A stretch of 64,000 bases of DNA, from the NCBI GenBank assembly GCA_963816185.1, contig CAWFJJ010000001.1, positions 320,001 through 384,000 of the forward strand. Direction: 5' to 3'. The notes below the pieces were generated by a model. That model saw only the letters and a list, made by a program, of their open reading frames with translations, made no database searches and was not told where the DNA came from. Each line of letters opens with the position of its first letter. Position 1 is the stretch's first letter. The stretch comes from Thermoanaerobaculia bacterium. Its GTDB lineage: Bacteria > Acidobacteriota > Thermoanaerobaculia > UBA5066. Positions 18,458-35,866 of the stretch are shown one piece after another. Both the position numbers and the translations under genes were made by a program.

Positions 18458-18811
18458 ATGCACGTGGAAGTGCGCAAGACCGGCGACGTCGTGATCGTCG
18501 ACCTCCAGGGCCGCCTCCTCGCGGGAGTCGGCGACGAGATCCTCCGCGACGTCATGAACGAGCTCCTCGCCGAGGGCTGGAGGAAGATCCTGCTCAACCT
18601 CTCCGAGGTGACCGCGATCGACAGCGCGGGGACGGGCGAGCTCGTCGCAAGCCACAAGATCTGCGAGCGATTCGGGGCGAAGCTCAAGCTCCTGAACCTG
18701 CACGAACGGGTGCGCAAGAGCCTGCACCTCGCTCAGCTCCTTCCCGTCTTCGAGGTCTACGACGAGGAGCGCGTTGCCCTCCGACACTACGGAGAGAGGA
18801 AGGCCCCCTGA
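18458..18811 (+). CDS. STAS-domain anti-sigma factor antagonist
   Basis: ILLNLSEVTAIDSAGTGELV; 117 aa. Confidence 0.9.
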   Translation: MHVEVRKTGDVVIVDLQGRLLAGVGDEILRDVMNELLAEGWRKILLNLSEVTAIDSAGTGELVASHKICERFGAKLKLLNLHERVRKSLHLAQLLPVFEVYDEERVALRHYGERKAP

Positions 18812-18833
18812 TTCCGGGCCTTTCCGGAGGGCC

Positions 18834-21416: not shown

Positions 21417-21451
21417 GGTCGAAAACGGCCGGGAGCGTAAACTTCCGCGCC

Positions 21452-21784
21452 GTGAGAGCTGGTCTCGTCCGCGTCGCCGTGCTGGCCCTGCTCGCGCCGC
21501 TGGCGCTGGGCGGAGCGTTCGGGCACGTCGACGGCTTCGAGGTCCTCTCGCACGGCGCACACCTCTTCGCTCCCGACCATCCGGCCCACGCTCCGTTCGT
21601 CCCCGAGAAGGAACACCCGTGCGCAGCATGCGCCGTCGCGAATCTGACGCCTCCTGCTTTTGCGACCCTCCTCCTCGTTCCGCCGATCGTGGGGATCACT
21701 CGCGAGACGCAGTGGTCTTGGAGGGCGCCGACGCCCGCGCTTCCGGAACTCACTGGCCGCTCTCCGCCTATCCCGACCGCGTAG
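21452..21784 (+). CDS. Leader ORF 1 (110 aa): signal-like N-terminus, His-rich/CAAC core, C-terminal RSPP; DUF2946/CruR-like putative arrest peptide
   Basis: C-terminal part of track ORF 20201..21784; GTG 21452 lies 8 nt after TAAACT; paralog of 31965..32303 and 34991..35326. Confidence 0.8.
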   Translation: MRAGLVRVAVLALLAPLALGGAFGHVDGFEVLSHGAHLFAPDHPAHAPFVPEKEHPCAACAVANLTPPAFATLLLVPPIVGITRETQWSWRAPTPALPELTGRSPPIPTA

Positions 21785-21847
21785 ACGTTTTTCATTTCGT
21801 CCACGGTCGGGAGGCATAGCGCCTCCCCAATCGACACTCAGGGAGGC
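21766..21847 (+). promoter_or_regulatory. Putative four-segment translational attenuator (1:2 + 3:4 versus 2:3)
   Basis: TCCCGACCG 21771-79 pairs CGGTCGGGA 21804-12; GGGAGGC 21809-15 pairs GCCTCCC 21821-27, which alternatively pairs the SD GGGAGGC 21841-47. Confidence 0.65.
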
Positions 21848-21855
21848 TCGAAGAC

Positions 21856-22995
21856 ATGACCATTCGGTCATCACCGCTGAAAACGCTGTTCCTTCTTACT
21901 GTTCTCCTGCTCGCGGCGCATCCTGTCGCCGCGCAGACGGAACCTCCCCCGGCGGCGCCCGCACCCGACAGCCCGCCGCCTCAGGCGGGGGGCGGCGGAA
22001 GCCAGACGACGAACTACTTCAACCCCAGCGTCTCGGTCATCGGGAATTTCCTCGCCGTAGGGGGCCAGAACCAGGTTGAAAACCTGCCCAACGCGAGCCT
22101 GCGGGAATCGGAGCTCGGTCTCCAGGCGATCGTCGACCCATACGGGCGAGCCGATTTCTTTCTCTCCTTCGGCGAGCAGGGCGTCGAGGTGGAAGAGGGC
22201 TTCCTGACTTTCACCTCTCTGCCCGCGGGCCTGCTCGCGAAGGTGGGACGGATGCGCGTGTCGTTCGGCAAGATCAACACCCTTCACCTGCACGTGCTCC
22301 CGTGGCCGGACTCCCCCCTCCCGATCGTCAACCTCCTGGGAGGCGAGGAAGGGTGGATCGGAACGGGCGTCTCCCTCGCCGAGCTCGTGCCCTTGCCCGG
22401 AGATACGTTCTCGGAGATCACCGGACAGGTCTTCCGCGGGGATTCGGCGGGGTTGTTCGTCGCCCAGAAGCGGAGCGACCTCGCTTACAACGGGCACTAC
22501 CGGATCTTCCGCGACCTGAGCGACTCCACGAACCTCGACCTCGGTTTCTCCTACGGGCAGGGCCCGAACGGAATCGCCTCGAACGCGATGACGCGCCTCG
22601 AGGGAATCGATGCGACGTTTCGATGGAAGCCGCTCGTGCGCGGCACGTACCGCTCCGCTTCTTTGAGAGGGGAGTTCGTTCGCAGCAGGCGAGACCAGCC
22701 CGACGGCCGCCAGACGGCGCAAGGGTGGTTTCTCTCCGGCGAGTACCAGCTTGCCCAACGCTGGTTCGCCGGAGCGCGACTCGAGTCGTCCGACCACGCG
22801 GACGATTCCGCGAAGCGCGACACGGGCGTCGCCGCCACGCTGACCTTCTGGCCGAGCGAGTTCTCCCAGCTTCGCGGGGAGTTCCGGCGCCGCCGCTACG
22901 AAGGCTATCCGGGCGCGCCCGATATCTATACTGCCAACGAGGTCCTTCTCCAGGTGCAATTTGCGATCGGCGCGCACGGCGCGCATCCGTTCTGA
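21856..22995 (+). CDS. Putative zinc-regulated outer-membrane beta-barrel receptor/porin
   Basis: Signal peptide; FNPSVSVIGN, ELGLQAIVDPY, EVEEGFL, FGKINTLHLH, PSEFSQLR, C-terminal IGAHGAHPF; first gene of a ZnuA/ZnuB operon. Confidence 0.75.
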   Translation: MTIRSSPLKTLFLLTVLLLAAHPVAAQTEPPPAAPAPDSPPPQAGGGGSQTTNYFNPSVSVIGNFLAVGGQNQVENLPNASLRESELGLQAIVDPYGRADFFLSFGEQGVEVEEGFLTFTSLPAGLLAKVGRMRVSFGKINTLHLHVLPWPDSPLPIVNLLGGEEGWIGTGVSLAELVPLPGDTFSEITGQVFRGDSAGLFVAQKRSDLAYNGHYRIFRDLSDSTNLDLGFSYGQGPNGIASNAMTRLEGIDATFRWKPLVRGTYRSASLRGEFVRSRRDQPDGRQTAQGWFLSGEYQLAQRWFAGARLESSDHADDSAKRDTGVAATLTFWPSEFSQLRGEFRRRRYEGYPGAPDIYTANEVLLQVQFAIGAHGAHPF

Positions 22996-23005
22996 GGAAG
23001 GTTTC

Positions 23006-23920
23006 ATGAAAACGTTCAAGCTTCTGTTCGCCGCCCTTCTCCTTTCCTTCGCCTCGCCTCTCCTGGCGAAGATCCACGTCGTGTCGTCCCTCCAGGACTT
23101 CGCCTCGATCGCGGAGGCGATCGGGGGCGACCGGGTGGAGACGTACGCGCTGGCGAAGGGATATCAGGACCCGCATTTCGTGGACGCCAAGCCCTCGTTC
23201 ATCCTGAAGCTTTCCCGCGCCGACGTCCTGATCGTCGCCGGCCTCGAGCTCGAGATCGGATACCTGCCGCCGCTGATCGACCAGAGCCGCAACGACAGGA
23301 TTCACGTCGGCAGCGCCGGATATCTGGATGCTTCGATCGGCTGCGACATCCTCCAGCGGCCGACTCGGCAGGTCACACGCGCGATGGGTGACGTGCATCC
23401 GTACGGGAACCCGCACTACTGGACCGATCCGGAAAACGGCCGTGTGATCGCCTGGGCCGTCGCCGAGAAGCTGTCCGAGCTCGATCCCTCCGGGAAAGCC
23501 GTCTTCGAGAAGAACCTCGCCGCGTTCGAAGGGCTTCTGACCCAGAAAGAGAAGGAATGGAACGCGAAGATGGGTCCCTACGCGGGGACGAAGGTCGTGA
23601 CCTTCCACGACTCCTGGCCGAACTTCGCGAAGTACTTCAAGCTCGAAATCGCCGGGCACATCGAGCCGAAGCCGGGCATTCCGCCCACGCCCTCTCACAC
23701 ACTCGAGATCATCAACTTGATCCAGGCGCAGAAGATCCCGGTGATCCTCGTCGAACCCTACTTCGACAGCAAGACGCCGAAGTACATCGCACAGAAGACC
23801 GGCGCCGCGGTGGTCACGTTCTATCCGTCGGTCGGCGGGATACCGGAGATCAAGGACTACTTCGCGCTCTTCGATCACAACATCGACGCCTTCGTCGCGG
23901 CAAACAAGGCAAAGAAATAG
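23006..23920 (+). CDS. Metal ABC transporter substrate-binding protein (ZnuA/TroA family)
   Basis: QDPHFVDAKPS, GLELEIG, GDVHPYGNPHYWTDP, TFHDSW, IEPKPGIPPTPSH. Confidence 0.92.
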   Translation: MKTFKLLFAALLLSFASPLLAKIHVVSSLQDFASIAEAIGGDRVETYALAKGYQDPHFVDAKPSFILKLSRADVLIVAGLELEIGYLPPLIDQSRNDRIHVGSAGYLDASIGCDILQRPTRQVTRAMGDVHPYGNPHYWTDPENGRVIAWAVAEKLSELDPSGKAVFEKNLAAFEGLLTQKEKEWNAKMGPYAGTKVVTFHDSWPNFAKYFKLEIAGHIEPKPGIPPTPSHTLEIINLIQAQKIPVILVEPYFDSKTPKYIAQKTGAAVVTFYPSVGGIPEIKDYFALFDHNIDAFVAANKAKK

Positions 23921-23924
23921 ACAG

Positions 23925-24755
23925 ATGACGATCCTTCAGCTCCTCCTTCCTGCGTTCGTCGCGAGCCTCATCCTCACGGGAATCCACGCCTATCTCGGCG
24001 TTCACGTGGTCGAGCGGGGCGTCATCTTCGTGGACCTCTCGCTCGCGCAGATCGCGGCTCTCGGCACGACGGTCGCGTACCTCGCCGGATACGACCTGCA
24101 CTCCACGGCCGCTTACGTCTTCTCCCTCGGCTTCACGTTCCTAGGAGCCGCGATCTTCGCGTTCTCCCGCGTCCACCGTAAGACCCGCATCCCGCAGGAG
24201 GCGATCATCGGCATCGTCTACGCGGTCTCGGCGGCGGTCGCCATCCTCGTGATGTCGAAAGCGACGCAAGAGACGGAGCACCTGAAGGAGATGCTCGTCG
24301 GCAACATTCTTTCGGTGACGTGGGGGGAGCTGGCGAAGACCGCGTTTCTCTATTCCCTGGTGGGCCTGTTTCATTACATCTTCCGAAAGCGATTCCTCCT
24401 GATCTCGATGAACGAGCCGGAAGCGGAGCGGCAGGGCCTGAACATCCGGTGGTGGGACTTTCTCTTTTACATGTCCTTCGGATTCGTCGTGACGTCGTCG
24501 GTTGCGATCGCCGGCGTGCTCCTCGTCTTCTGCTTCCTCATCGTGCCTTCGGTGACCGCGATGCTCTTCGCCGAGCGGCTCGGGCCGAGACTCGCGATCG
24601 GCTGGACGATGGGAGTCGTCGTGTCGGCGCTCGGGGTGTGGTTCTCGTTTCAGCTCGACCTTCCGACCGGAGCGACCATCGTTGGAACCTTCGGGGCCGC
24701 GCTTCTCGTCATCGCGGGTTATCGGCGGGCGTTCCGGAAGCCGGCCGCCGCCTGA
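23925..24755 (+). CDS. Metal ABC transporter permease (ABC-3, ZnuB/MntB family)
   Basis: YLGVHVVERGVIFVDLSLAQIAALG, QEAIIGIVY, GVLLVFCFLIVP, LDLPTGATIV. Confidence 0.9.
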   Translation: MTILQLLLPAFVASLILTGIHAYLGVHVVERGVIFVDLSLAQIAALGTTVAYLAGYDLHSTAAYVFSLGFTFLGAAIFAFSRVHRKTRIPQEAIIGIVYAVSAAVAILVMSKATQETEHLKEMLVGNILSVTWGELAKTAFLYSLVGLFHYIFRKRFLLISMNEPEAERQGLNIRWWDFLFYMSFGFVVTSSVAIAGVLLVFCFLIVPSVTAMLFAERLGPRLAIGWTMGVVVSALGVWFSFQLDLPTGATIVGTFGAALLVIAGYRRAFRKPAAA

Positions 24756-24757
24756 CG

Positions 24758-25654
24758 TCACTTCGGCGCGCTCTCCGCCACGAGGCGCAGCTTCGTTCCG
24801 CCTCCGCGACCGTCGATGACGTACGTCGTGAACCGGGGAACGAGCCGGCCGGCCGTCTCGAGCCAGAGCCGCGAGCGCAGAAGAGCGGGGTCAGCGGCCG
24901 CTTCACGCGCGAGGGCGGCGAAGCGATTCGAGTCGCCTCGTGCCGCCTCGACGCGCTGAACGCGCACGGCCTCGGTGTCCTCGATCAGCGCTTGCGCCTC
25001 GCCCCGCGCCTTGGACGCGAGCTCGTCGGAATAGGCTCGCGCGTCGTTCTGAAGGCGCTCGCGGTCGGCCGCGGCGTTCTGCACGGACTGGAAGGCCGCA
25101 ATCACGGGGGGCGCAGGGTCGAGCGAACGCCAGGCTGCGGAGATCACGACGACGCCGAGCCTGCGGCCGTCCGCCTCGCGCTGAACGCGTGCACGAACTC
25201 TCTCCAGGAGGGCCGTTCGCCCGGACGAGAGGACGTCGTCCACCGGGCTCGCTCCGAGCTCCTCGGTCAGCGCCCGTTCGCCTTCCCGCTTCAGGACGCC
25301 CGACACATCGATGGCGCTGACCAGGAACCGGACCGGATCCGCGATCCGATACTGCAGGGCGCACTCGGCGACGAGGAGGTTCGTGTCCCCCGTGAGGAAG
25401 GAGCCGGCCTGCGCGGCGCCGCTCGAATTCGCGTCCGCGCCGCCCGCCGAGACCGTGAAGGTGCGCGTGACCTCCACGCGCACGATCCGGTCGACGAGGG
25501 GGATTCTCGTCCTCAGCCCGGGTCCGAGCGTCGCTTTCAGCGGAGAGCCGAAGCGGAAGACGACGGCCCGTTCCGCGGGCCCCACGAGGTATGACGACGA
25601 AAGGAGGACTGCGAGGCCGGCAGACGCCACGAGAACGAGCGCGACCCTCTTCAC
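24758..25654 (-). CDS. HflK-like SPFH/band-7 protein
   Basis: TM, then YLVGPAERAVVFRFG, LGPGL, FLTGDTNLL, YRIADP, VIAAFQSVQNA, ARGEA; GTGA overlap with the upstream gene. Confidence 0.85.
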   Translation of the reverse strand: MKRVALVLVASAGLAVLLSSSYLVGPAERAVVFRFGSPLKATLGPGLRTRIPLVDRIVRVEVTRTFTVSAGGADANSSGAAQAGSFLTGDTNLLVAECALQYRIADPVRFLVSAIDVSGVLKREGERALTEELGASPVDDVLSSGRTALLERVRARVQREADGRRLGVVVISAAWRSLDPAPPVIAAFQSVQNAAADRERLQNDARAYSDELASKARGEAQALIEDTEAVRVQRVEAARGDSNRFAALAREAAADPALLRSRLWLETAGRLVPRFTTYVIDGRGGGTKLRLVAESAPK

Positions 25655-26559
25655 TTGTGCGACTCCCGGGGGTTTGGCGGCCCGTCGACCAGAACCTTGA
25701 GCAGGGGAGAATCGGCCGGGAGCACCGCGGTCGTCCCAGTCGCGAGCATCTTCTCGTACGCGTCGAGGGCCTGGACCAGCCGGTACAGCTCCCGATCCTT
25801 CGCCGCGGCGGCGGCGTAGAGACGTGCCGCCTCGGCTTCCCCTGCGCCGCGGGCCTCGGCGGCCTTGCGCGTGGCGTCGGCGAGAAGCTTCGCCTTGTCG
25901 CGCTCGGCCTCCGCACGGATCCGCAGCGCCTGCTCCTCGCCTTCCGAGCGGAGGCGCCGGGCGATCCTCTCTCGCTCCGACCGCATTCGTTCGAAGACGC
26001 TGGCGAGGTTCTGTTCCGGGAATCCCAGCCTCTTCACCGCGAGCTCTTCGACGACGATGCCGTAATCCTCGGCCGCGCGGGACCGGACCCTGCCCTCGAC
26101 CGACGCGGCGAGGTCGGAGAGTTTCGCCTCGCCTGGCTTGGCGGAGATCAACTGGCTCATCGGGACGGTTCCAAGAGCCGCCGCGAGCTCCGAAGAGGAG
26201 AGATCCGCCAGGCGCGCTTCGGCCGCCTCGCGTCCGGCAAGGGTCTCGAGAAAACGCTTCGGATCGGCGATCCGCCACAAGAGGAAAGTCTCGACGGCGA
26301 GGTTCTTCTTGTCCTGCGTGAGGAACTCCGCGGCCGGCGGATCGAACGGCTGGAGGCGCTTGTCCAGACGTGTGACTCCGTCGACGAACGGCATTCGCAC
26401 GTGGAGACCCGCGTCCGTCACGATCTCGATGGGACGCCCGAACCGTGTGCGAACCACTTGCTCCGTCGCCTCCACGACATAGAGTGACCGCCATGCGACG
26501 AGTACGACGAGCAAGGCCCATGCGATCCGCGCGAGAGCTGCCCGATTCACTTTGATCAT
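25651..26559 (-). CDS. HflC-like SPFH protein
   Basis: LYVVEATEQVVRTRFGRP, AGLHVRMPF, FLTQDKKNL, WRIADP, VFERMRSERERIARRLRSEGEE, RGAGEAEAARLY. Confidence 0.88.
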   Translation of the reverse strand: MIKVNRAALARIAWALLVVLVAWRSLYVVEATEQVVRTRFGRPIEIVTDAGLHVRMPFVDGVTRLDKRLQPFDPPAAEFLTQDKKNLAVETFLLWRIADPKRFLETLAGREAAEARLADLSSSELAAALGTVPMSQLISAKPGEAKLSDLAASVEGRVRSRAAEDYGIVVEELAVKRLGFPEQNLASVFERMRSERERIARRLRSEGEEQALRIRAEAERDKAKLLADATRKAAEARGAGEAEAARLYAAAAAKDRELYRLVQALDAYEKMLATGTTAVLPADSPLLKVLVDGPPNPRESHK

Positions 26560-26566
26560 GAGGTCC

Positions 26567-28663
26567 TCATTCAGAAGGCGCCGCGGGAGGCTTCGTGGAA
26601 GTCGGCGCTGGAACGACTCCGGCCCGTCCGGGTGGCGTTATCCAGAGCTCGACGCCCGGGAATCGGCGTGGATCGGGAAGAATGAACTTGGGAGCCGCCC
26701 CAAGGGCGCGCGCCATCCGCTCCCAGTAGAGGCGCTGGGCGACGAGCCCTCCGAAGTGATGCGAAGACGCCGCGAGCTTCTCGAACACGTGTGCATCGGA
26801 GGCGGCCTGGCTCGTCACGAGAAGGCGCTGCGCGTCCGCAGCCAGGACTTGCCTGGCCGCCTCGCCCGCGGCAAGGCGTACGGTGGATTCCTGCTCGACG
26901 AGGGCCCGATTTCGCGTCGTCGTCCGGTCCTCGGCCGCAGAGGCCACGTCCCGGAAGGCCGCGTGCACCTCGTCCGGTGCGTGGACGTAGAGGAGCTCCA
27001 CGGCGAGCGCTTTCACGCCGAGCGTCTCCTCCAGGCGTGCCGCCTTTAGCCGGGCGAGAACTGCGCCTTCGACTCCTGCGCGGCCCGACGCGTAGAGCGC
27101 GTCGAGCTCGGTGCCGGCGATCTCCGACGTCATGGCCGCGCGGGCGACCCCCCGGAGCGATCGTTCGACGTCGGATGGCCCGAAGGCGAAGCGGGTGGGG
27201 TCGACGACACGCCACAAGATCGAGGCGGTGGCGTCGACGACGCTTTCGTCTCCCGTCACGTAACGGGATTCGGAAAGAACCCGATTCCCCGCCAGCGGAT
27301 ACAGATCCGCCGCGGCCTTTCCGGTCCGGTAGCCGAGTTCCAGGACATGCATGCGACCAACCGAGATGCGCCGCGAGATGCCGATCGGCCACGGAAGGAG
27401 CACGTGCCCGCCTGGCTCTCGTGGTTCTCCGACCGGACGCCCGAACGCAGTGACGATCCCACGCTCTCCGGGTCGCACGACGAAGAAGGCAGTCGAGACC
27501 CAGAAGACCAAGAGCACGAGACCAGCCATCCGCACGATCAGCCTCCACGGAATTCGCGGCCGCAGGACGCCGAGAAGAACGCGGGCCTCGCGGAGCCCGG
27601 CACGCATCTCGCCCCACGCGTGCTTGAAGCTGCCTCGCCTCACGCTGAGCACGAGAAGCACGACAAAGGCGAGCGCGGCGAGGATCTCCAGCCAGACGAG
27701 CGTGCCGCTCGGCGCTTCCGAGCCGGGCCCCATGAGCGTCGCGGCGCTGCGGGAGACCAGCGTGTCGAACGCCAGGCCGGCGAGCATCGCGACCGCGAAG
27801 ACCGCGCCGAGATAGAGAGCGAGGATCCGGCGGCCGAAGAGCCGTGCCACGACGGCCAGGGTCGGCAGGTTCGTCGCCGGGCCTGTGAGCATGTAGACGA
27901 GTCCGGCTCCGGGGCTCAACCCTTTCGCGATGAGGACCGCGGCGACAGGCGTCGAGCCGCTCGCGCACACGTAGGTCGGGATGCCCGCGAGGGCGGCCGC
28001 CGCCATGCCCAGGACGGGATTCGGAAAGAAGCGGGCGAGCGAGTCCGGTCCAAGACTGGCGTCGAGGAGCGCCGAGAGAACGAATGCGAGGGTCAGCCAG
28101 GGCGCCAGCTCGTCGAAGATCTCGACGAAGCCACGCCGAAGAGCGCGCTCGAACCTCTCGCGAAGAGAGGTTTCCCGTTGGGCCGATTCCGGCATTTCGT
28201 CCGGGGCTTCCGGGTGCTCCGGTTCCGGGTCTGTCACCGGCTCCGAATCCACCCGGCGACGCGCGGTCACGAGCGTGAGAACGCCCGCCACGAGGGCCGT
28301 TGCGACGGCGGCCACGGGCCGGGCGATCATCATGGCGGGGCCCAGGTAGCCGTATGTCAGAAGGATGGAATCGATTCCGGTCTCGGGAGTCGAGATCAGA
28401 AACGCGACGACCGCTCCCGGGCTGGCGCCCTTCCTCCGGAGCTCCCGCGCCGCCGGGACTACGCTGCACGAGCACAAGGGAAGCGGCACCCCGAGAAGCG
28501 TCCCGAGGAAGACCGGTCGAAGACCGCCGCCGCCGAGAAGGTGAGTGATCCGGTCGGCGCGAACGAACTCGGCGAGGATGCCGGCCAGAAGGAAGCCGCC
28601 CAGGAGGAACAGGCTTCCGCCCAGGAAGACTCGGATCAGCGCCGACGTGAAAGTTCCGATCAT
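26567..28663 (-). CDS. DUF318/ArsP-type (SO_0444-like) permease fused to a C-terminal HflK-like SPFH domain
   Basis: GVPLPLCSCSVVP, AFLISTPETGIDS, GIPTYVCASGSTP, GLSPGAGLVYMLTGPATN; then FVVRPGERGIVTAFG, YVTGDESVVD, HAPDEVHAAFRDVASAAED, all in one frame; ATGA overlap at 28660-28663. Confidence 0.85.
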   Translation of the reverse strand: MIGTFTSALIRVFLGGSLFLLGGFLLAGILAEFVRADRITHLLGGGGLRPVFLGTLLGVPLPLCSCSVVPAARELRRKGASPGAVVAFLISTPETGIDSILLTYGYLGPAMMIARPVAAVATALVAGVLTLVTARRRVDSEPVTDPEPEHPEAPDEMPESAQRETSLRERFERALRRGFVEIFDELAPWLTLAFVLSALLDASLGPDSLARFFPNPVLGMAAAALAGIPTYVCASGSTPVAAVLIAKGLSPGAGLVYMLTGPATNLPTLAVVARLFGRRILALYLGAVFAVAMLAGLAFDTLVSRSAATLMGPGSEAPSGTLVWLEILAALAFVVLLVLSVRRGSFKHAWGEMRAGLREARVLLGVLRPRIPWRLIVRMAGLVLLVFWVSTAFFVVRPGERGIVTAFGRPVGEPREPGGHVLLPWPIGISRRISVGRMHVLELGYRTGKAAADLYPLAGNRVLSESRYVTGDESVVDATASILWRVVDPTRFAFGPSDVERSLRGVARAAMTSEIAGTELDALYASGRAGVEGAVLARLKAARLEETLGVKALAVELLYVHAPDEVHAAFRDVASAAEDRTTTRNRALVEQESTVRLAAGEAARQVLAADAQRLLVTSQAASDAHVFEKLAASSHHFGGLVAQRLYWERMARALGAAPKFILPDPRRFPGVELWITPPGRAGVVPAPTSTKPPAAPSE

Positions 28664-29373
28664 GACTTCGAGAGGACGATTGCGAGGTAGATGACGACCG
28701 CCCCGAAGACGGACATCAGGCTCGTCACGACCTTGGGGTGGCGATGGTGGCTCTCGGGAATCAGATCGCTCGCGCCGATGAAGAGAAAGAACCCGCAGAA
28801 CAGGGCGAGGAGGATTCCGAGGTGATCCTCCCTCAGCGAGAGGAACGTGGTGGCGAGGACGCCTGCGATCGGAGCCGCCGCGTCGAGCAGGAGCCACCGA
28901 AACGCGGTGCGGCGGTTTTCCGCGCCCCTGAGGACCACGCCCACGGTGTTGATGCCGTCCGAGAAGTCGTGGGCCACGACCGCGATCGCGACGACGACCC
29001 CCACCGCCGCTGAGGCCTGAAAGGCGAAGCCGAGCCCCACGCCGTCGAGGATGCTGTGACACACGAGGCTGCCCGCTCCGAGCCACGTCGGTGTGTGCAC
29101 ATGCTCGTCGTCTCCATGCGCGTGCAAGAGGAGCGTCCGGCTCAGAAGCATGTAAAGGAGGAATCCCGTCGCGACGATGGCGGTGACCGCCGGTGTCCCG
29201 TATCGCTTGCCCCCGAGCTCGAGGGCTTCCGGGAGGAGGTCGAAAAACGCGACCCCGATGACGGCGCCGGCGCTGAATCCGAGGATGAGATGCAGCTTGT
29301 CCTGCCGCTTGAGCGCCAGGAGGCCGCCGGCTAGCGTGGCCAGCCCGGCGGCGCAGCCTAGGAGGAGGACCAT
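28660..29373 (-). CDS. ZIP-family metal transporter (ZupT-like)
   Basis: LGFSAGAVIGVAFFDLLPEA, HAHGDDEHVH loop, HSILDG, AHDFSDG, ASDLIPESH. Confidence 0.88.
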   Translation of the reverse strand: MVLLLGCAAGLATLAGGLLALKRQDKLHLILGFSAGAVIGVAFFDLLPEALELGGKRYGTPAVTAIVATGFLLYMLLSRTLLLHAHGDDEHVHTPTWLGAGSLVCHSILDGVGLGFAFQASAAVGVVVAIAVVAHDFSDGINTVGVVLRGAENRRTAFRWLLLDAAAPIAGVLATTFLSLREDHLGILLALFCGFFLFIGASDLIPESHHRHPKVVTSLMSVFGAVVIYLAIVLSKS

Positions 29374-29391
29374 GAGCCAGCCCTGACCTCC

Positions 29392-29416
29392 GACGGGGGC
29401 GAAAGCCCGCCCCCGT
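29392..29416 (-). other. Intergenic GC hairpin with UUCG-type loop between TBDR and ZIP genes
   Basis: Minus strand GACGGGGCGGGC-TTTC-GCCCCCGTC; no U-tract, so an RNA stability or pausing element is more likely than an intrinsic terminator. Confidence 0.4.
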
Positions 29417-29439
29417 CTGGAGCTCGCATCGACGCGCCC

Positions 29440-31878
29440 CTAGAACTCAAACTTGATCCGCGCCGCCCACGTCCGCGGCGGAACCACGTGCGTACCTCCG
29501 AAAACGGACTGGAAGTTGTAGAGCCCCTTGACGTCGAAGGCGTTCAGGAGATCGCCCTGCAGCTCGAACGGGAGGCCGTATTTCTGGAGGCGCGCGCCGA
29601 GCGAGAAGCTCCAGATCGTGCGCGACTTGACGCGCTGGGGGTCCTCGTCGAACCGGATGTACGGCGCCGCGTACGCGGTGTCCGGGCTCGAGAGGACGTC
29701 GTCGATCGTGCCCGCGTCCGTGACGAGGCCCGAGTCGTAGCGTTGCGTCATGCCGGCCCAGAGGCCGGTCTGGCCGAAGTCGTAGAAGAAGCCGGCCTGC
29801 TCCTGGATGTCCTGGTCGTGGTCGATCAGGAAGCAGCCGCCGCCGAGGGTGTCGAGGGCGCCGGCGTCGAGGAATAGCCCGCCGACGAACGGGTTGCAGT
29901 ACTCCGCGTGCACGTGACCGACCGAGACGTAGCCCCTCAGGCCGCCGAGGACTGGCGCGAGGTCGAGCCGCGCGTTCCAGCCGTTCAGATTCCCGCTCTC
30001 GAAGTTGAGCGGAAAGACGATTCCCGTGTTGAAGAACTGATCCTGGTCGGCCGCGTTCTTCACCTTGCGATACCAGTACGAGACGTCGAGGCGCAGCTTC
30101 GATCCGATTCCCTGTTGGATCCCGGCGTTGTACACATCGTGCCGTTCGGAGAGATTGAAGAGCTGGCCGCCGCCGAGCGCCTGCGCGTCCTGGATCTCAG
30201 GCGGGGCGACCGATCTCGCCTGCGCGGAAGAGGACAAGAGGATGTTCTCGTACTCGGGCGTGATGAACATGCGGTTGTACGAGGCGCGGAACACGGTGCT
30301 CGTCGCCTCGAGGAGATACGCAACGCCGATGCGCGGCTGGAGCTGGCTCTCGGAAAGGAAGAGCTCGTTGTGGTCGAAGCGTACGCCGGCGTTCACGGTG
30401 AGGCCGTTCCACCGGATGTTGTCCTGCAGATACGCCGCGACGTACGTTCCCGTCTTCGAGTCGGCGAACTGGAAAACCGAGCCGCCGCGCGTGAGGTCGT
30501 ACGGCGCCAGGTTCGGGTTGTAGCCATCGGCGTTTGGGTCGTTGAAACCGGGGTCCGTGATGCCGAACGTGAACTGCTCCCGGATCGGAAAGCGTTTCGC
30601 CTGAACCCCGACCTTGAGCTCGTTGATACCCGCCGTCTTCGAAAGCGCGAAATTGATTCCCTGATTCTCGAGAGACCGGTTCTGGTCGGCCTGGACGGGC
30701 GTGTCGTAGGGCGAGGAATAGAGCGTCAGGCGGTTATCGCGACCGTAGGCCTGCCCCTCGACCACCCAGCCGCCGGGGAGAACGTTCTGATAGCCGAGGT
30801 TCGCGTTCCAGTCGTTGGACTGGATGCGCTGGTCCTGGCCGGCAACCTCCTGCGAGGGCAGGTTCGTGACATCACGTTTCGTCCGGCCGATGTTGCTCGT
30901 CAGGCGCCAGGAGGTCGACTCGTCCGCGGAGACGGCGTCGAGGCGGATGAAGGCCCGCAGCGAGTTGCCGACGTTGTGGAAGCTGTCGAACGACACGGGG
31001 TCGAGGAACCGATCGGAACGGGAGCCGTCGGCATCCGCGAACCATCCGAACCGCGCATTCCCGCCGCCGGCGGAGGCCGAAGCCGAGCCCGTGTTGAATC
31101 GTGCGCCTCCCACCGTCACGTCGCCTTTCACGCCGTTCGTTCCGAGGCCGGAGCGCGTCGTCAGGTTGATCACGCCGTTCGCCTTCTCGCCGTACTCCGC
31201 CGGGATGCCGCCCGTGACGACTTCGAGGCTCTGCGCGACGCTCGGATCCAGGGAGTTCGAGAACGTGATGCCGATCTGGTCCCCGATCGGCTGTCCGTCG
31301 ATGACGAGGAGCTGCTGAGAGTGCCCGCCCTGGAAGTGATAGCGGCCGTTCTCGTCCTGAGAGAAGCCCGGCGTCGAGGTCACGATCGACTCGAACGCCC
31401 GCCCCGGCACGGCGGCCGCGGTCCTCTGGATGAGCGACTTGTCGATGTCGATGTGGGTCATGGCCGTGTCGCTTTCCAGCTCGACGCCCTCCTTCTCGGC
31501 CGTCACGGACTCGGCCGCCGTCGTCTCGATCCCGAGCGAGATCTCGCGCGTCACGGGGACGCTCCCTCGCACATCCACGTCGGTGTGAAACGGGGTGAAG
31601 CCCTGCAGATTCGCCGTGAGGTGATACGGGTTCGGGGGCACGTTGTAGAAGAGGTAGCTTCCGTCGCCTCCCGACGTGGTCTGCTGCCGGTACCCGGTGA
31701 TGTCGTTCGCGAGAACGACCGTAACGCCCGGAAGAGGCTTGCCGTCCGGGCCGGCAACGTGTCCGCGGATCTGGCCGCCAGTGGCGGTCGACGCGGACGC
31801 CGGGTGCGAGCCGATGAAAAGGACCGCGAAGAGAAACGAGACAAATGCGGCGCTGCGCGCCGCGCTTCGAAAAGTCAT
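29440..31878 (-). CDS. TonB-dependent receptor with N-terminal carboxypeptidase-regulatory-like domain
   Basis: GQIRGHVAGPDGKPLPGVTV, VVTGGIPAEYG..GVINLTTRSG, LTVNAGVRFD, C-terminal ...ARIKFEF; Cys/His in loops (HVHAEYC, GGCFLIDHDQ); ATG 31878 with GTGGAGG SD. Confidence 0.9.
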   Translation of the reverse strand: MTFRSAARSAAFVSFLFAVLFIGSHPASASTATGGQIRGHVAGPDGKPLPGVTVVLANDITGYRQQTTSGGDGSYLFYNVPPNPYHLTANLQGFTPFHTDVDVRGSVPVTREISLGIETTAAESVTAEKEGVELESDTAMTHIDIDKSLIQRTAAAVPGRAFESIVTSTPGFSQDENGRYHFQGGHSQQLLVIDGQPIGDQIGITFSNSLDPSVAQSLEVVTGGIPAEYGEKANGVINLTTRSGLGTNGVKGDVTVGGARFNTGSASASAGGGNARFGWFADADGSRSDRFLDPVSFDSFHNVGNSLRAFIRLDAVSADESTSWRLTSNIGRTKRDVTNLPSQEVAGQDQRIQSNDWNANLGYQNVLPGGWVVEGQAYGRDNRLTLYSSPYDTPVQADQNRSLENQGINFALSKTAGINELKVGVQAKRFPIREQFTFGITDPGFNDPNADGYNPNLAPYDLTRGGSVFQFADSKTGTYVAAYLQDNIRWNGLTVNAGVRFDHNELFLSESQLQPRIGVAYLLEATSTVFRASYNRMFITPEYENILLSSSAQARSVAPPEIQDAQALGGGQLFNLSERHDVYNAGIQQGIGSKLRLDVSYWYRKVKNAADQDQFFNTGIVFPLNFESGNLNGWNARLDLAPVLGGLRGYVSVGHVHAEYCNPFVGGLFLDAGALDTLGGGCFLIDHDQDIQEQAGFFYDFGQTGLWAGMTQRYDSGLVTDAGTIDDVLSSPDTAYAAPYIRFDEDPQRVKSRTIWSFSLGARLQKYGLPFELQGDLLNAFDVKGLYNFQSVFGGTHVVPPRTWAARIKFEF

Positions 31879-31889
31879 GTCAGTCGATG

Positions 31890-31980
31890 CCTCCACGAAG
31901 AAAGCCTCTGATCGCGGAGGGTGCGTACCCCCCGACCGTGAATGACGACGTCGGAACGTGTCTTCTAAACGGCCAGGGAG
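31890..31980 (-). promoter_or_regulatory. Putative four-segment translational attenuator downstream of leader ORF 2
   Basis: mRNA CUCCCUGGCCGU (31980-69) pairs ACGGUCGGGGGG (31939-28); CGGGGGGU pairs ACCCUCCG (31922-15); CCUCCGCGA (31920-12) pairs UCGUGGAGG containing the SD (31898-90). Confidence 0.68.
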
Positions 31981-32303
31981 ACGGGGGGCGCGCGGGCGGG
32001 AAGCTCGGGAGCGGGGGCGAAGGTGATAGTCCGCTCGGCGCGGATCTCGAGCGCGCGGCGGACCTCGGGTGGGACGAGGAAGAGCGGTGCGGCTGTGGGT
32101 GCTACCAGCGAGGCGATCGCGCAGGCCGCGCAGGGGTGCTCCTTCTCCGGCACGAACGGCGCATGCGCGGGATGGTCCGGCGGGAAGAGGAACGTGCCGT
32201 GCGACAGCGTCTCGAAGCCGTCGACGTGCCCGAACGCGCCGCCGAGAGCGATCGGCGCGAGGGCGAGGACGACCAGCAGGCGCCGGAACCGGGTCAATCG
32301 CAC
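31965..32303 (-). CDS. Leader ORF 2 (112 aa): His-rich/CAAC core, C-terminal RAPP; DUF2946/CruR-like putative arrest peptide
   Basis: ...HVDGFETLSHGTFLFPPDHPAHAPFVPEKEHPCAAC...PELPARAPPVSLAV; lies 86 nt upstream of the TBDR; TAGGAT 6 nt before GTG. Confidence 0.85.
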   Translation of the reverse strand: MRLTRFRRLLVVLALAPIALGGAFGHVDGFETLSHGTFLFPPDHPAHAPFVPEKEHPCAACAIASLVAPTAAPLFLVPPEVRRALEIRAERTITFAPAPELPARAPPVSLAV

Positions 32304-32338
32304 CCTTGAATCCTACACGAGCCCATTCTTCGAACCTC

Positions 32339-34426
32339 TTACGGAAGGATCGTTCTCGGGTCGTTCGTGGTGTTGTCGATGACCGCGGCATACGTCGCGA
32401 TCTGCGCGCCGGCCGTCGCGGTCGACACGACGAGGACCGCGTTCGTCGTGCCGAAAGGCGCGAGAAGCGTGGTGACGACGTTGCCGACCTGCGTCATCCC
32501 GAGCGGGGGCAGCGTCCGGGTCGTGGTGCCGAAAGTCGAGCCGTCCGCAGCGAGCAGCGTGAGCGTGACGTCCACGCTCAAGGCCGTCGCGTTCGCGAGG
32601 ACGACGTTCGTGCGGAATGCCGTGTCGTCACGAAGGCCGATGAGCGCTTTGGGCGTGCCCGGCATGACGAGGTCGTTCGCGCCCTCGGCCGGAACGGACT
32701 GGCCGAAAGTGCCGGCGCCGCCCGCCGCCGGTGTCGAGGTCTGGCTGACCACTTTGAGCGACGCCGAGTCGGCTGTGATCAAGATCGCGCCATAGTTCTG
32801 GGGATCCGTGGGGCTGACCCCGAAGAGCGAGGCGAGAATGTCGGCATAGGTCACGGCCTTGTTCGCCGCGAGCGCGCGGACCTGCTTCGGGCCCCCGGTG
32901 CCGTCCTGGTCGTGGCCCAGGAACTGGAGCGTGAGATTCGCGTCCGTCGTGCCGCGGTTCGCGATCGTCAGGTCCGTCGTGTAGAAGGCGCCGTTCTTGC
33001 CGGCGGCGTGGGCGCTCGAGGGCAGGATGTACGTGGTCGTCGGGCCGCCCGAGCCGGCGAACCAGCCGATGTCGTTGAACAGGGGAAGTGTGGCGTCGAC
33101 TCCGCTCGGCAGGTCGGACGAGATGTACGGCTCCATGAGAAGGCTCGGGGACGCCGTCGAGTCGAAGTGCGACACCGACGAACCCTGTACATACGGGTTC
33201 GGTGCGTAGAGAAGCAGGCGGCCGGCGGCGTCCGTGCCGGCGAGAAGCGTCGGGTCCGTACCCAGATTTGCCGAATCGGGCAGGTTCGCGCGGAGGGTCG
33301 CGCCGTCGCTCATGGTGACGAGGATGGACGGGATCGTGATCGTGGCGTCCGTGCCGGACATTCCGAACAGAGGCTCGGTCGTGTTGTCCGCGATGATGGC
33401 GCCGATCGCGCCCGCGTTCTGGGCGTTCTTGGCCTTGACTGTAAAATTACAGGTTCCGCGGTCGATGAGCGCGATCTGGCCGGAGACATTCGACGTGATC
33501 GGGCTGCACCCGTCCGTGGCGAATCCGTAGAGGGCCGCGACGATCTGCCCGGTGACGCCCGGGTTTGAGAGCGCCGGCCCGAAGGAGGCGGTGCCGACGG
33601 AGTAGGAGCCGGACGCCGCCCCAGCGGTCACGAGAAGGCGCCGCCTCTTGCCGAGATACGTGCCCGCGAACGCGTTCGCCGCCGTCCCCGACCACGTCAG
33701 GTTGCCCGTGTTGAGCTCGGACGCCGCGCGCTCGGCGTCCGTGAGCTTGTCCCACGTCTTACCGAGCGTGTCGTCGTAGATGAAGCGGTCGAAGATGGTC
33801 GGCTGCGGCGTCGGCTGCGATGACGTGCTGCCGAGGAGCGCGCCCGTCGAATCCACGCCCGAGAAGAACCCGAGCCCGTGGGCGAACTCGTGTACGGCGA
33901 CCGAGAGGAAATTGATGTCCGACCCGGCGAGGTTGTCGAGGCCGAGGTAAAACGAGAGACCCGTCAGGCAGCCTGTCTGTCCGAGGCTGCTGTTGAAACG
34001 CGCCGTCATGTCGACCGTGGCGGGGTCCTGGTCAGAACCCACGAACTTGTTCGCGAGAGCCTTCGCGTACCACGTTCCCGCGACGGGGGCACCCGCAAAA
34101 TCGGCGTAGACCGTATTCGCGTAGGTCGATCCGAGGATGCCGGAGGTCGCGCTGCACGCGAGGGGAGTAAAGCTCGCGCTCACGCGGATCGTGACATTGC
34201 TCGTCAGGAGCCCTCCCCAGATCGCGCCGGCCTGCTGGAATACGTTGAGGCGTTGCTGCCCGAGCGTCGTGCCCGTGTTGCCGCCGACGGGCGAGACCGG
34301 AGTCGGGTCGTTGAGGCCGGTTCCCGCAGGATCGGAATTGACGATGACGAAAGCCGCGCCGGCGAAAAGCGGCCGGGCGGCGAGAGACGCAAGGAGGAGG
34401 AGCGGCAAGAGCGAGCGTCGCGCCAT
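32339..34426 (-). CDS. Secreted zinc metallopeptidase with PA domain and lineage-type C-terminal domain
   Basis: Signal peptide; VAVHEFAHGLGF (HExxHxxG); PA domain IALIDRGTCNFTVKAKNAQNAGAIGAII; GSSVSHFD, LMEP; C-terminal ...YAAVIDNTTNDP. Confidence 0.85.
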   Translation of the reverse strand: MARRSLLPLLLLASLAARPLFAGAAFVIVNSDPAGTGLNDPTPVSPVGGNTGTTLGQQRLNVFQQAGAIWGGLLTSNVTIRVSASFTPLACSATSGILGSTYANTVYADFAGAPVAGTWYAKALANKFVGSDQDPATVDMTARFNSSLGQTGCLTGLSFYLGLDNLAGSDINFLSVAVHEFAHGLGFFSGVDSTGALLGSTSSQPTPQPTIFDRFIYDDTLGKTWDKLTDAERAASELNTGNLTWSGTAANAFAGTYLGKRRRLLVTAGAASGSYSVGTASFGPALSNPGVTGQIVAALYGFATDGCSPITSNVSGQIALIDRGTCNFTVKAKNAQNAGAIGAIIADNTTEPLFGMSGTDATITIPSILVTMSDGATLRANLPDSANLGTDPTLLAGTDAAGRLLLYAPNPYVQGSSVSHFDSTASPSLLMEPYISSDLPSGVDATLPLFNDIGWFAGSGGPTTTYILPSSAHAAGKNGAFYTTDLTIANRGTTDANLTLQFLGHDQDGTGGPKQVRALAANKAVTYADILASLFGVSPTDPQNYGAILITADSASLKVVSQTSTPAAGGAGTFGQSVPAEGANDLVMPGTPKALIGLRDDTAFRTNVVLANATALSVDVTLTLLAADGSTFGTTTRTLPPLGMTQVGNVVTTLLAPFGTTNAVLVVSTATAGAQIATYAAVIDNTTNDPRTILP

Positions 34427-34433
34427 GTTTCGC

Positions 34434-34898
34434 CTATTTCTCCCGGCTCGCGGGGGGCGGGGCGGGCTGGGGCGAGGCCTCGAGGAAGATTCGCGCCTCG
34501 TCGGCGCCGCGAACGCAGGCGCTCGTGAGGGTTCCGTCCGGGTTCTTCCGGATTACGGAAAGGCTGGCCTGATCCGGGCCGAGCCGCATCATCTTCGTTC
34601 CGTCCGGCAACGTGATGACCTGCGGCTCGGCCGCGACCAGAGGGCGTCGTCCGAGAAGCTGGCGGGCCTCTTCGGGGGTCAGGGGACGGAGTGCTCCGGT
34701 CACGGGATCGCGCGCCACGGTCAGGGAGATCCCGGGCGCGGCCGAGGGCTTCACCGTAGCGGGAGCCGCAGCCTTCCTCGTTGCGGACTCCTTCGGCGCA
34801 GCGCTTGTCGCGGGCTCGTCCGCGCGGGCCGGGAAAGAGAGGAGAAGAAAGACGAGAATCGAAGGGGCGGAATGTCGCGCCGTTCGGAGGAGGATCAT
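34434..34898 (-). CDS. Small secreted protein (post-PEP-CTERM-1-like), partner of the PA peptidase
   Basis: Signal peptide; VARDPVTGALRPLTPEEARQL, LPDGT, KNPDGTLTSAC; AGGGAG SD. Confidence 0.65.
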   Translation of the reverse strand: MILLRTARHSAPSILVFLLLSFPARADEPATSAAPKESATRKAAAPATVKPSAAPGISLTVARDPVTGALRPLTPEEARQLLGRRPLVAAEPQVITLPDGTKMMRLGPDQASLSVIRKNPDGTLTSACVRGADEARIFLEASPQPAPPPASREK

Positions 34899-34990
34899 TT
34901 GTCTGGTCTCCCTATGTCGGCAAGAGCCTGCGCCGAGAGCGAGGCTGCTCGACCTTCGAAGAAATCCGTTTTACGACTGATGAAGGTCGG

Positions 34991-35326
34991 CTACGCGCGA
35001 GCCAGGCAGGGAGGGGAGCGTCCGGGAAGCTCGGGGAGAATTGGAGCGTGCTGCACGCGCTCGGCGTGAACCGGATGCGCGAGACGGATTTCGGGCGGAC
35101 TCAGGAAGAGGGGTGCGATGACCGGCGGCAGGAGGTTTGCTACCGCGCAGGCGGCGCACGGGTGCTCCTTCTCGGGCACGAACGGCGCGTGCGCGGGGTG
35201 GTCCGGCGGGAAGAGGAACGTGCCGTGCGACAGCGTCTCCAAGCCGTCGACGTGCCCGAACGCGCCGCCGAGAGCGATCGGCGCGAGGGCCGCGAGGACG
35301 ACGATCCGGAAGAGCCGCCTTTTCAT
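34991..35326 (-). CDS. Leader ORF 3 (111 aa): His-rich/CAAC core, C-terminal RSPP; paralog of leaders 1 and 2
   Basis: Core nearly identical to leader 2, with mostly third-position changes; PELPGRSPPCLARA; TAGAAT 10 nt before ATG. Confidence 0.85.
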   Translation of the reverse strand: MKRRLFRIVVLAALAPIALGGAFGHVDGLETLSHGTFLFPPDHPAHAPFVPEKEHPCAACAVANLLPPVIAPLFLSPPEIRLAHPVHAERVQHAPILPELPGRSPPCLARA

Positions 35327-35449
35327 CGCCGTTGAGATTCTATCTCGTCAGAAGAGCACGGCCGGCCCCGAGGTGTCGTTCAGCAGTTTCGGGAAAGGCT
35401 TTCACGCGGGCCTGCCCTCTTGACGAGCCGCGCCTAGAATGCGCGAGAT

Positions 35450-35824
35450 ATGCGCCGCCTGAGGGAGGTTTCGGCCGCGCTCCTCCTCGCCGTCTTGGCG
35501 ACTGCGGCCATCCTGCCGCTCGCCGCGTCGGGCGCCGCGTGCCACAGGTGCCACTGCGCGGTGCGGATGGCCTGCTGCGAGGACGGCACGTGCACGATGG
35601 GCGAGGAGCCGCCTGCGGGCGGACCCGAGTGGCGCACTTGCCGGCGCGAGGCGCCGACGTCCGCGGCGTCGGCGCTCGACGCGTTCGACCGGGCGCTGAG
35701 AGGGGGTTCCTTCGAAGGAAAAGACAGGGAGCCCGCCGCTCGAAGCGTAGAGCTTCAGCCCGCCCGGCCGCGCACCACCACACCGAATCCTGAAACGCCC
35801 CCTCCCCGCGTCTTCTCTTTCTAA
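35450..35824 (+). CDS. Leader ORF 4 (124 aa): signal peptide, Cys/His cluster, C-terminal PETPPPR; putative arrest peptide
   Basis: CHRCHCAVRMACCEDGTC; ends PNPETPPPRVFSF; divergent from leader 3; TAGAAT 9 nt before ATG. Confidence 0.75.
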   Translation: MRRLREVSAALLLAVLATAAILPLAASGAACHRCHCAVRMACCEDGTCTMGEEPPAGGPEWRTCRREAPTSAASALDAFDRALRGGSFEGKDREPAARSVELQPARPRTTTPNPETPPPRVFSF

Positions 35825-35859
35825 GAAATTCCTCTCTTCGAATTTCCTCGGAAGGAGAA
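35813..35859 (+). promoter_or_regulatory. SD-sequestering hairpin overlapping the last codons of leader 4
   Basis: TTCTCTTTC 35813-21 pairs GAAGGAGAA 35851-59 (SD), enclosing GAAATTC 35825-31 / GAATTTC 35840-46. Confidence 0.62.
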
Positions 35860-35866
35860 CCGCATC

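Follow-up and report, generated by a model that had tools for sequence, protein, structure and literature searches.

What does a small, nameless open reading frame (ORF) do when copies of it stand directly in front of three separate operons? The question is raised by a 64,000-nt stretch of DNA from a Thermoanaerobaculia bacterium (assembly GCA_963816185.1, contig CAWFJJ010000001.1, positions 320,001 to 384,000; hereafter the window, whose numbering is used for all coordinates). The original prediction, made from the sequence alone, took three ORFs of 110–112 amino acids (aa) for leader peptides that sense a metal and arrest the ribosome. It is rather probable, on the evidence below, that each ORF acts in cis as a regulatory leader and senses metal through its nascent chain, as a divergent representative of the CruR/CutF type (DUF2946-like). 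The three ORFs lie where they had been placed, 71, 86 and 92 nt ahead of the first genes of their operons (copies 1, 2 and 3, respectively):

21452..21784, + strand: leader 1, 110 aa, GTG start; signal-like helix, His-rich core, CAAC, 42-aa spacer, RSPP and the tail IPTA
31965..32303, − strand: leader 2, 112 aa, GTG start; RAPP variant, tail VSLAV
34991..35326, − strand: leader 3, 111 aa, ATG start; RSPP, tail CLARA

Conservation of the leader family and its spacer

The three leaders share a common order: a basic region and then a hydrophobic stretch of ~16 residues at the N-terminus (signal-like by composition), a near-invariant core block, a divergent run of 42 residues, R(S/A)PP and the stop codon. 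The core block reads LGGAFGHVDG(F/L)E(V/T)LSHG..LF.PDHPAHAPFVPEKEHPCAAC, through HPCAAC, and it holds five His (six in copy 1) in addition to CAAC. As predicted, the spacer from CAAC to RxPP is exactly 42 residues in all three aligned leaders. The motif had been placed five codons before the stop, which is correct for copies 2 (RAPP) and 3 (RSPP), whereas four residues are left after the RSPP of copy 1. In the alignment of the three leaders, identity to copy 1 is 59% for copy 2 and 63% for copy 3, and a six-frame search of the 5.09-Mb assembly returned these three copies and no others. The window DNA has 68% G+C, and leader 1 forms the final 110 codons of a long spurious open frame that starts at 20201.

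The three ORFs are one protein-coding family under selection. The ratio of non-synonymous to synonymous substitution rates (dN/dS), which the original prediction had proposed to check, is 0.06–0.10 in the core between paralogues versus ~0.39 in the spacer, and the core is thus under strong purifying selection. Copies 2 and 3 had been said to differ in the core mostly at third codon positions, and the counts agree (5.0 synonymous and 1.0 non-synonymous changes). Between these two copies (31965-32303 and 34991-35326) dS is 0.18 in the core and 1.31 in the spacer; the low core value suggests either that gene conversion has been confined to the sensor core or that synonymous sites are constrained.

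None of the Pfam or NCBIfam models matched the three leaders at E ≤ 1, in line with the earlier remark that the core was not recognised as a described family. A word-index search returned 180 homologues, all nameless or 'hypothetical', from metagenome bins of Thermoanaerobaculia and other Acidobacteriota; a second such protein search with the wide alignment (A4) returned the same close family only, without Pfam labels. The family is narrow, since a profile search of 1.84 billion cluster representatives gave merely 13 matches. Among 121 sampled genomes of the class it was found in 10, namely all nine of the window's genus (G000 and eight more) and one weak match elsewhere, with 1–3 leader copies per genome and the most in the window's own genome.

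Variation in spacer length, which the original prediction had singled out as damaging to it, was looked for among these homologues. The pattern CxxC-42-RxPP is exact in 140 of 142 close homologues, the two exceptions having aberrant C-termini, and on this count it is far above chance. The motif is RSPP in 115 of the 140, RAPP in 24 and RPPP in one, with a tail of 2–5 aa. The spacer is also 42 in all eight distant relatives from the 1.84-billion search, which are 26–50% identical to copy 3 in alignment A4 (that of one relative, P0125, was counted by hand because the script had taken a second CxxC), and their indels are confined to the part N-terminal to CxxC. Residues H25, C57, C60, P78, R103, P105 and P106 are invariant across the wide alignment, and C57 and C60 are invariant both in 55 and in 20 aligned sequences. 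A constant length over a poorly conserved stretch that ends in an invariant RxPP is what a distance-dependent mechanism predicts, and a mature folded protein needs none. Cleavage just before the invariant His, giving a 'histidine brace', was considered and dropped; the preceding residue is W or V in some relatives.

A scan of species-representative genomes provided 33 related loci, whose downstream classes were assigned from Pfam matches and start-site reading. The leader is intact in 31 of them (L028 and L038 are frameshifted) and ends 57–119 nt before the next gene. It is the first gene of a metal-homeostasis operon in the three window copies and in 31 of the 33 loci. In every readable locus it lies in cis, 5' of a metal-transport operon, which bears out the claim that one module is reused in front of different operons. 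A match to the Shine–Dalgarno (SD) sequence, mostly GGAGG, precedes the chosen downstream start in 33 of 33 cases, that start having been picked partly by SD score.

Could the ORFs encode stable periplasmic metal-binding proteins, chaperones or buffers that act in trans, with RxPP as a slow spot or an incidental feature? The low dN/dS of the core and the signal-like N-terminus would suit such proteins, and CutF was itself initially taken for a chaperone (PMC9426467). This explanation is nevertheless highly improbable. The AlphaFold leader model has no confident fold (mean predicted local distance difference test score, pLDDT, 58): the N-terminal helix (residues 2–18) alone is confident, and core residues 24–50 score below 50. 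Moreover, an exact 42 residues to an invariant RxPP over a poorly conserved spacer would be pointless in a mature protein, the RxPP motif is depleted from proteomes (PMC12992588), and the leader always comes first in the operon, before a structured gap of 57–119 nt.

Codons of the proposed stall site and the downstream ribosome-binding site

If the leaders act in cis on the gene that follows, how might translation of RxPP be felt there? The elements concerned, including those found in minimum free energy (MFE) folds, are as follows:

21758..21769, + strand: RSPP codons CGC TCT CCG CCT of leader 1, where arrest is proposed with Pro codons in the P and A sites; also the putative 5' arm of RNA stem I
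21805..21815, + strand: decoy (SD look-alike) GGTCGGGAGGC, predicted to pair with the leader's 3' codons or with the anti-SD
21820..21828, + strand: anti-SD CGCCTCCCC, predicted to pair with the decoy or with the real SD
21841..21846, + strand: SD GGGAGG of the 379-aa gene
31983..31994, − strand: RAPP codons CGC GCG CCC CCC of leader 2; the MFE and consensus folds pair them with the decoy GGTCGGGGGGT (31927-31937)
31890..31923, − strand: anti-SD CACCCTCCGCG (31913-31923) and SD GGAGG (31890-31894) for a TonB-dependent receptor with its ATG at 31878
35009..35020, − strand: RSPP codons CGC TCC CCT CCC of leader 3; in the MFE fold CCUCCCUG pairs directly with the SD AGGGAGA (34907-34913)

The codons of the motif are strongly biased. 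Of 33 leaders, 24 use CCT for the first Pro and 17 for the second, and 16 use TCT for Ser. Elsewhere CCT accounts for 8.1% of 270 Pro codons (ten genes of the window) and, among the leaders' 446 remaining Pro codons, for 6.1%. The resulting sequence of the proposed stall site, UCUCCUCC(U/C), is complementary to GGAGG. Since the RxPP codons pair with the downstream SD or with its copy, a ribosome paused there should open downstream translation. The motif is also selected as protein, as the Arg is invariant despite being encoded by four codons (CGC, CGT, CGG and CGA), and Ser/Ala is encoded by five.

These last points bear on an explanation by RNA only, in which the 3' terminus of the ORF would serve as an anti-SD element and downstream initiation would be coupled to leader translation as such, with neither peptide arrest nor metal sensing. 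The CCU bias at the PP codons and their pairing with the SD or decoy would follow from it directly. It is barely credible all the same, because the Arg and Ser/Ala of the motif are kept across four and five codons, and the His/Cys core and the ruler of 42, both selected as protein, would be superfluous for an RNA element.

Two arrangements of the RNA were found. The consensus fold of 13 regions like those of copies 1 and 2 contains two stems, the first between the RxPP codons and the SD look-alike GGGAGGC and the second between CCUCCC and the real SD. In this consensus 93.9% of cells are paired, a value equalled by none of 500 shuffles, with slid controls at 47–69% and double changes in 5 of 13 pairs. 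The alternative hairpin between decoy and anti-SD has 86.8% of cells paired, and the two states are mutually exclusive. In 12 regions of a second type, CCUCCUUC (the PP codons and the codon that follows) pairs directly with the SD around a covarying hairpin, and the MFE fold of copy 3 has this arrangement. The MFE z-scores are −3.7 for copy 1 and −2.8 for copy 2. Furthermore, the mean unpaired probability of the SD was 0.04 in the free RNA, 0.26 once the ribosome-covered part was removed and 0.12 when the 5' part was shuffled (n = 33; the set excludes L009, L028 and L038).

A palindrome like TTCTnAGAA stands ~30 nt past the leader stop at 34950-34970 (− strand) and at seven receptor-type loci (L007, L008, L011, L013, L032, L033 and L036), and a similar one follows just after the receptor start codon. 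This pair could be an operator pair or form a long-range RNA helix.

The 5' ends of the leader mRNAs may be marked by a further conserved element:

21438..21443, + strand: TAAACT, −10-like hexamer, 8 nt before the start codon of leader 1 with no SD between
32310-32315 and 35337-35342, − strand: −10-like hexamers of leaders 2 and 3, pattern TA[AG][AGC][AC]T

This pattern, defined post hoc, is present in 32 of 34 leaders from the window and loci L007–L039, 6–10 nt ahead of the in-frame start and without an intervening SD, against a background expectation of 0.014 per 60 nt. It suggests that the hexamer is a promoter −10 box and that the leader mRNAs are leaderless or near-leaderless and mostly GTG-initiated. 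A promoter and terminator scan of 21000-36000 gave 0 promoters and 9 terminator-like sites, with 8.6 expected.

The output of an arrest could also lie in transcription. In the model for CruR, a copper-responsive leader, termination is Rho-dependent (PMC9426467), and a real arrest in the present leaders might similarly act mainly through Rho-dependent termination between the genes, not through opening of the SD. Towards their 3' ends the leaders are rich in C and poor in G (e.g. CGCTCTCCGCCTATCCCGACC), intrinsic terminators are no more frequent than chance, and truncation opens the SD weakly in copies 2 and 3, all of which this would accommodate. As the main output it appears unlikely, given an intergenic region of 57–119 nt as against 162 nt in CruR (PMC9426467) and a conserved layout of decoy, anti-SD and SD which, with the CCU bias, points to control of initiation. 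The two outputs are compatible with each other.

Relation to CruR, CutF and other arrest peptides

CruR (Bp2923) of Bordetella pertussis had been offered as the nearest precedent, and the comparison is apt: an export signal, CXXC, conserved spacing, RAPP near the end and TonB-receptor operons are all described for this system (PMC9426467). According to that report, an export signal is present in >95% of DUF2946 members, RAPP lies three residues from the end, the CXXC-to-RAPP spacing is 45 in CruR and conserved within 1–2 residues, and DUF2946 genes take the first position in operons with TonB-dependent transporters. Copper control by CruR depends on CXXC and RAPP, the spacing matters, and copper is modelled to relieve the arrest and so lead to termination (PMC9426467). 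CruR arrests in the PURE system with its two Pro codons in the P and A sites (PMC12992588).

The leaders resemble CruR as the small first gene of a TonB-receptor operon, with an N-terminal export signal, a conserved His right after it, CXXC, a fixed spacer, a RAPP-type motif near the stop and a predicted lack of structure. The same positions (R, H, CxxC and RxPP) are prominent in alignments of both the leader family and DUF2946. In an hhalign comparison, the wide alignment A4 matched 39 DUF2946 proteins end to end (83.7% probability, E 8e-6, 102 columns), superposing the N-terminal Arg, the post-helix His, CxxC and RxPP; with only four DUF2946 proteins the probability was 63.8%. In a protein atlas, used as a lead only, a neighbouring cluster carries the DUF2946 model PF11162 on 16% of its members.

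The leaders also differ from DUF2946 in several respects. Bona fide DUF2946 proteins do exist in Acidobacteriota, with matches at E ≤ 0.001 in 4 of 201 genomes, three of them above the family cut-off. Of 114 relatives that were then collected, 111 have a spacer of 43 (48 proteins) or 44 (63), and these carry RAPP, RGPP or RPPP, with RSPP in none. The leaders, in contrast, mostly have RSPP (115/140) and have exactly 42 residues, a length fixed more strictly than in CruR but outside its range of 45 ± 2 and outside the 43–44 of the 111 acidobacterial proteins. They also have a long His-rich core block and lie beside ZnuA, ZIP and other zinc-type genes, not copper genes, and their intergenic regions of 57–119 nt show an SD-masking layout in place of the 162-nt Rho-dependent terminator region of CruR (PMC9426467). 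A six-frame search of the genome with PF11162 found nothing at the leader loci and two sub-threshold matches elsewhere only. The architecture is certainly common to both, and the leader family is probably a far-diverged branch of the DUF2946 superfamily, although it falls outside the curated model and has a ruler shorter by 1–3 residues.

CutF of Rhodobacter capsulatus offers a second comparison. There, copper strengthens a stall at PPP, which melts a stem-loop over the start site of cutO (PMC9973294; bioRxiv 10.1101/2025.02.05.636593). A stem-loop over the next start that is melted by a stalled ribosome is likewise proposed for the leaders, which differ in having RxPP, a motif type reported to be refractory to EF-P (PMC12992588); CutF has CxxxC and PPP and is EF-P-dependent and copper-induced. 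The CutF report describes 5,334 CutF-like proteins, among them clusters with His-only motifs beside HupE/UreJ genes and, more generally, His-only and mixed His/Cys motifs beside non-copper genes (PMC9973294). The leaders fall within the filters used for such proteins, being 108–112 aa long (<150), with PP 2–5 residues from the end (within 15), a signal-like N-terminus and a same-strand gene 57–119 nt away (<1000).

Similarly, ApdA, ApdP, the SecM-like RAGP proteins and the RAPP/RGPP upstream ORFs (uORFs) share with the leaders a C-terminal R-x-P-P near the stop of a small secreted protein upstream of a regulated gene. Arrest at RAPP and RGPP resists EF-P, RSPP is arrest-permissive and depleted from proteomes, and RAPP/RGPP uORFs that have signal peptides are over-represented before TonB-receptor and metal genes across many phyla (PMC12992588). 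The leaders differ from ApdA, ApdP and SecM in that their downstream genes are for transport and outer-membrane functions, not secA, secDF or yidC, and in that the proposed release signal is metal binding, not translocation. As described, the survey in PMC12992588 sought RAPP and RGPP only, so that the RSPP majority of the leader family would escape its count.

The leader principle itself is therefore already published, as CruR (2022), as CutF-like proteins (PMC9973294) and as RAPP/RGPP uORFs (PMC12992588), and members of the family may be listed in Table S1 of PMC9426467 or in File S1 and Figs S5-S7 of PMC9973294. No report joining zinc, an arrest peptide and znuA was among the matches listed, which leaves the absence of one unproven.

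Proposed mechanism, operon context and meaning

How, then, would such a leader work? The mRNA probably starts at or just before the leader start codon. The ribosome would translate the signal-like helix, the His/Cys core and then the 42-residue spacer, and would pause once R-(S/A)-P occupies the P site and the codon for the second Pro has entered the A site, with CxxC by then just out of the exit tunnel and the His-rich block outside. Without metal the pause would persist and the ribosome would cover the RxPP and tail codons. These codons, when uncovered, would pair with the downstream SD, or with the decoy copy whose partner then locks the real SD; a lasting pause would thus keep the downstream start site open and the transport operon translated. 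With metal, most likely Zn(II), the His/Cys block would close on the ion at the tunnel exit, pull the chain and free the arrest. Termination would follow 4–5 codons on, the RNA would refold and the operon would be shut. Rho-dependent termination, as in CruR, may contribute. Folding near the tunnel exit exerts a pulling force, which in force-profile work peaks at tethers of some tens of residues. Roy et al. invoke such a folding-derived force at the tunnel exit (PMC9426467).

Zn(II) is proposed because of the context of ZnuA, ZIP and a zinc-type receptor, and zinc is thus probably the metal sensed, to judge from neighbouring genes only. The proposed polarity rests on the precedent of CruR and on the uptake character of 27 of the 33 loci. 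Sixteen loci have as first gene a porin-like gene (357–384 aa, outer-membrane-like, no Pfam match) together with ZnuA/ABC-3; a ZnuA or ABC-3 match was found in 13 of these 16, the other three being missed by a crude ORF picker. Eleven have a TonB-dependent receptor of the CarboxypepD_reg type, one of them (L014) assigned by N-terminal likeness alone. Two further loci are unclassed, namely L009, which lacks a start in the first 200 nt and has an ArsP_1/Band_7 gene beyond, and L031, at a contig end.

Several observations weigh against this account. In four loci (L017, L021, L034 and L039, L034 being placed by likeness to L039) the leader heads an efflux-type RND operon (OEP with HlyD_D23 and/or ACR_tran) whose RNA layout is no different, and these contradict a single polarity in which metal switches uptake off. 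Strong conservation of the core could also be expected of a stable metal-binding protein. PF11162 does not match the three leaders at E ≤ 1, and the narrow alignment A3 reached only 2.9% probability in hhalign against DUF2946. On the RNA side, copy 3 folds no more stably than its shuffled versions (z −0.9), no consensus structure emerged from the eight receptor-type regions of which copy 3 is one (−1.5 kcal/mol), and removal of the ribosome-covered part opens the SD by more than 0.2 in 15 of 33 cases only, with copies 2 and 3 staying at 0.06. GC-rich RNA also pairs readily and the loci are closely related, so that the shuffle statistics overstate the case. Finally, arrest at RxPP, metal binding, the identity of the metal, the polarity and the sensing compartment are matters that we infer, with arrest, metal binding and polarity taken by analogy with known systems.

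These four efflux-type loci among the 33 are at odds with a regulon purely for uptake. They also lend something to an opposite polarity, in which the same leader would work as in CutF, with the nascent chain in SecYEG, metal on the exported His-rich part strengthening the stall, and excess metal inducing the operon. Such a mode has a precedent in the copper-enhanced stalling that melts the stem-loop over the cutO start (PMC9973294; bioRxiv 10.1101/2025.02.05.636593); the signal-like N-terminal helix is present in all leaders, and in Caulobacter a DUF2946 gene stands before czrCBA (PMC4176598). It is judged quite unlikely, however, because 27 of 33 loci precede uptake-type genes (ZnuA/ABC-3 or TonB receptors) and the receptor operon of the window includes a ZIP gene, for which induction by excess metal would be harmful. 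Moreover, from the geometry CxxC would be ~45 residues from the peptidyl-transferase centre at arrest, too near to have crossed the translocon. The leaders of L034 and L039 share a subtype, ..ASAP(G/D)TPELPGRSPP.SPA, which is found too in several metagenome homologues.

The genes that follow the leaders in the window are those named by the original prediction (a Zn-type ABC system; a TonB-dependent receptor, ZIP, permease and SPFH operon; and a Zn peptidase):

21856..22995, + strand: first gene of operon 1, 379-aa outer-membrane-like protein, ATG at 21856
22961..24755, + strand: ZnuA-type binding protein (ORF as listed 22961-23920) and ABC-3 permease (23925-24755) of operon 1
24758..31878, − strand: operon 2, with a TonB-dependent receptor (29440-31878), ZIP (28660-29373), an ArsP_1 permease-Band_7 fusion (26567-28627), Band_7 (25651-26559) and Band_7 (24758-about 25810)
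32339..34898, − strand: operon 3, with a 154-aa post-PEP-CTERM-1 domain protein (34434-34898) and a 695-aa PA-domain protein with HEFAH (32339-34426)

The 379-aa protein has no Pfam, NCBIfam or PDB sequence match. In the protein atlas, again as a lead only, it lies beside clusters auto-named TonB-dependent receptor family protein, zinc-regulated TonB-dependent outer membrane receptor, and porin. No ABC ATPase gene adjoins the ZnuA/ABC-3 genes (22961-24755, +), and the next ORFs are on the opposite strand. The receptor of operon 2 is of the CarboxypepD_reg/Plug TonB-dependent type, and its Band_7 genes are SPFH genes. Further neighbours at the related loci include HupE/UreJ (L011), a histidine phosphatase and an S66 peptidase.

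The first ~12 codons after the leader are common to unlike genes. The post-PEP-CTERM gene behind copy 3 (34434-34898) starts MILLRTARHSA, like receptors in other genomes, and the starts of OEP genes resemble those of the 360-aa porin-like genes. These shared beginnings suggest that the cassette moved as a unit, with the beginning of the next gene. Upstream of leader 1, a GSDH-domain protein (18774-21416, +) ends ..YGVVNDGASPGQGTGDGSY.., a C-terminus that recurs upstream of the leader in several genomes, and the PA-domain protein (32339-34426, −) has a similar end, ..AAVIDNTTNDPRTILP.

An unrelated fourth leader candidate lies at 35450-35824 (+), divergent from leader 3. Its 124 aa comprise a signal-like N-terminus, a block rich in Cys (C.C.VRM.CC..GTC) and, at the C-terminus, an invariant P.TPPPR.FSF; it is conserved in five genomes of the genus and falls within the CutF-like filters. 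It ends 42 nt before a gene for a 333-aa outer-membrane-like protein (35867-36868, +; no Pfam match), and after this gene comes a WCPPC thioredoxin-like ORF.

As stated in the original prediction, the window has no Fur/Zur gene; the genome has two FUR-family genes, both on other contigs, and transcriptional control by Zur may thus operate alongside the leaders. No AT-rich palindromes resembling Zur boxes were seen upstream of the leaders on inspection by eye.

What is new here is an unannotated, lineage-restricted family with a His-rich core, an exact ruler of 42, a natural RSPP, zinc-type neighbours and three cassettes in one genome, together with a putative stall site that appears, from its codons and predicted folds, to double as the arm of an RNA switch. 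The leader genes are nameless in the sources consulted and are missed by the DUF2946 model, which exposes a gap in annotation. A bolder reading, possible but held only tentatively, is that this is the first zinc-sensing arrest peptide: a cassette of ~450 nt that has been copied, with the first codons of the next gene, before unrelated operons and so builds a post-transcriptional zinc regulon beside or instead of Zur, with peptide variants that might give either polarity, for uptake or for efflux. The cassette would comprise a −10 box on a near-leaderless mRNA, the His/Cys sensor, the 42-residue ruler, RSPP codons serving as both stall site and anti-SD, and a decoy-SD relay.

Copper is so far the only transition metal shown to be sensed post-transcriptionally by a nascent peptide (CruR and CutF), and no riboswitch is known for copper or zinc according to Roy et al. 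(PMC9426467). If the proposal is true, the principle would be extended to a second metal by means of a His-rich core, a strict ruler and zinc-type neighbours. The leaders would then offer a compact natural system for studying how ligand-induced folding at the tunnel exit frees an RxPP arrest, how an arrest site doubles as an RNA switch element and how one cassette is redeployed across operons.

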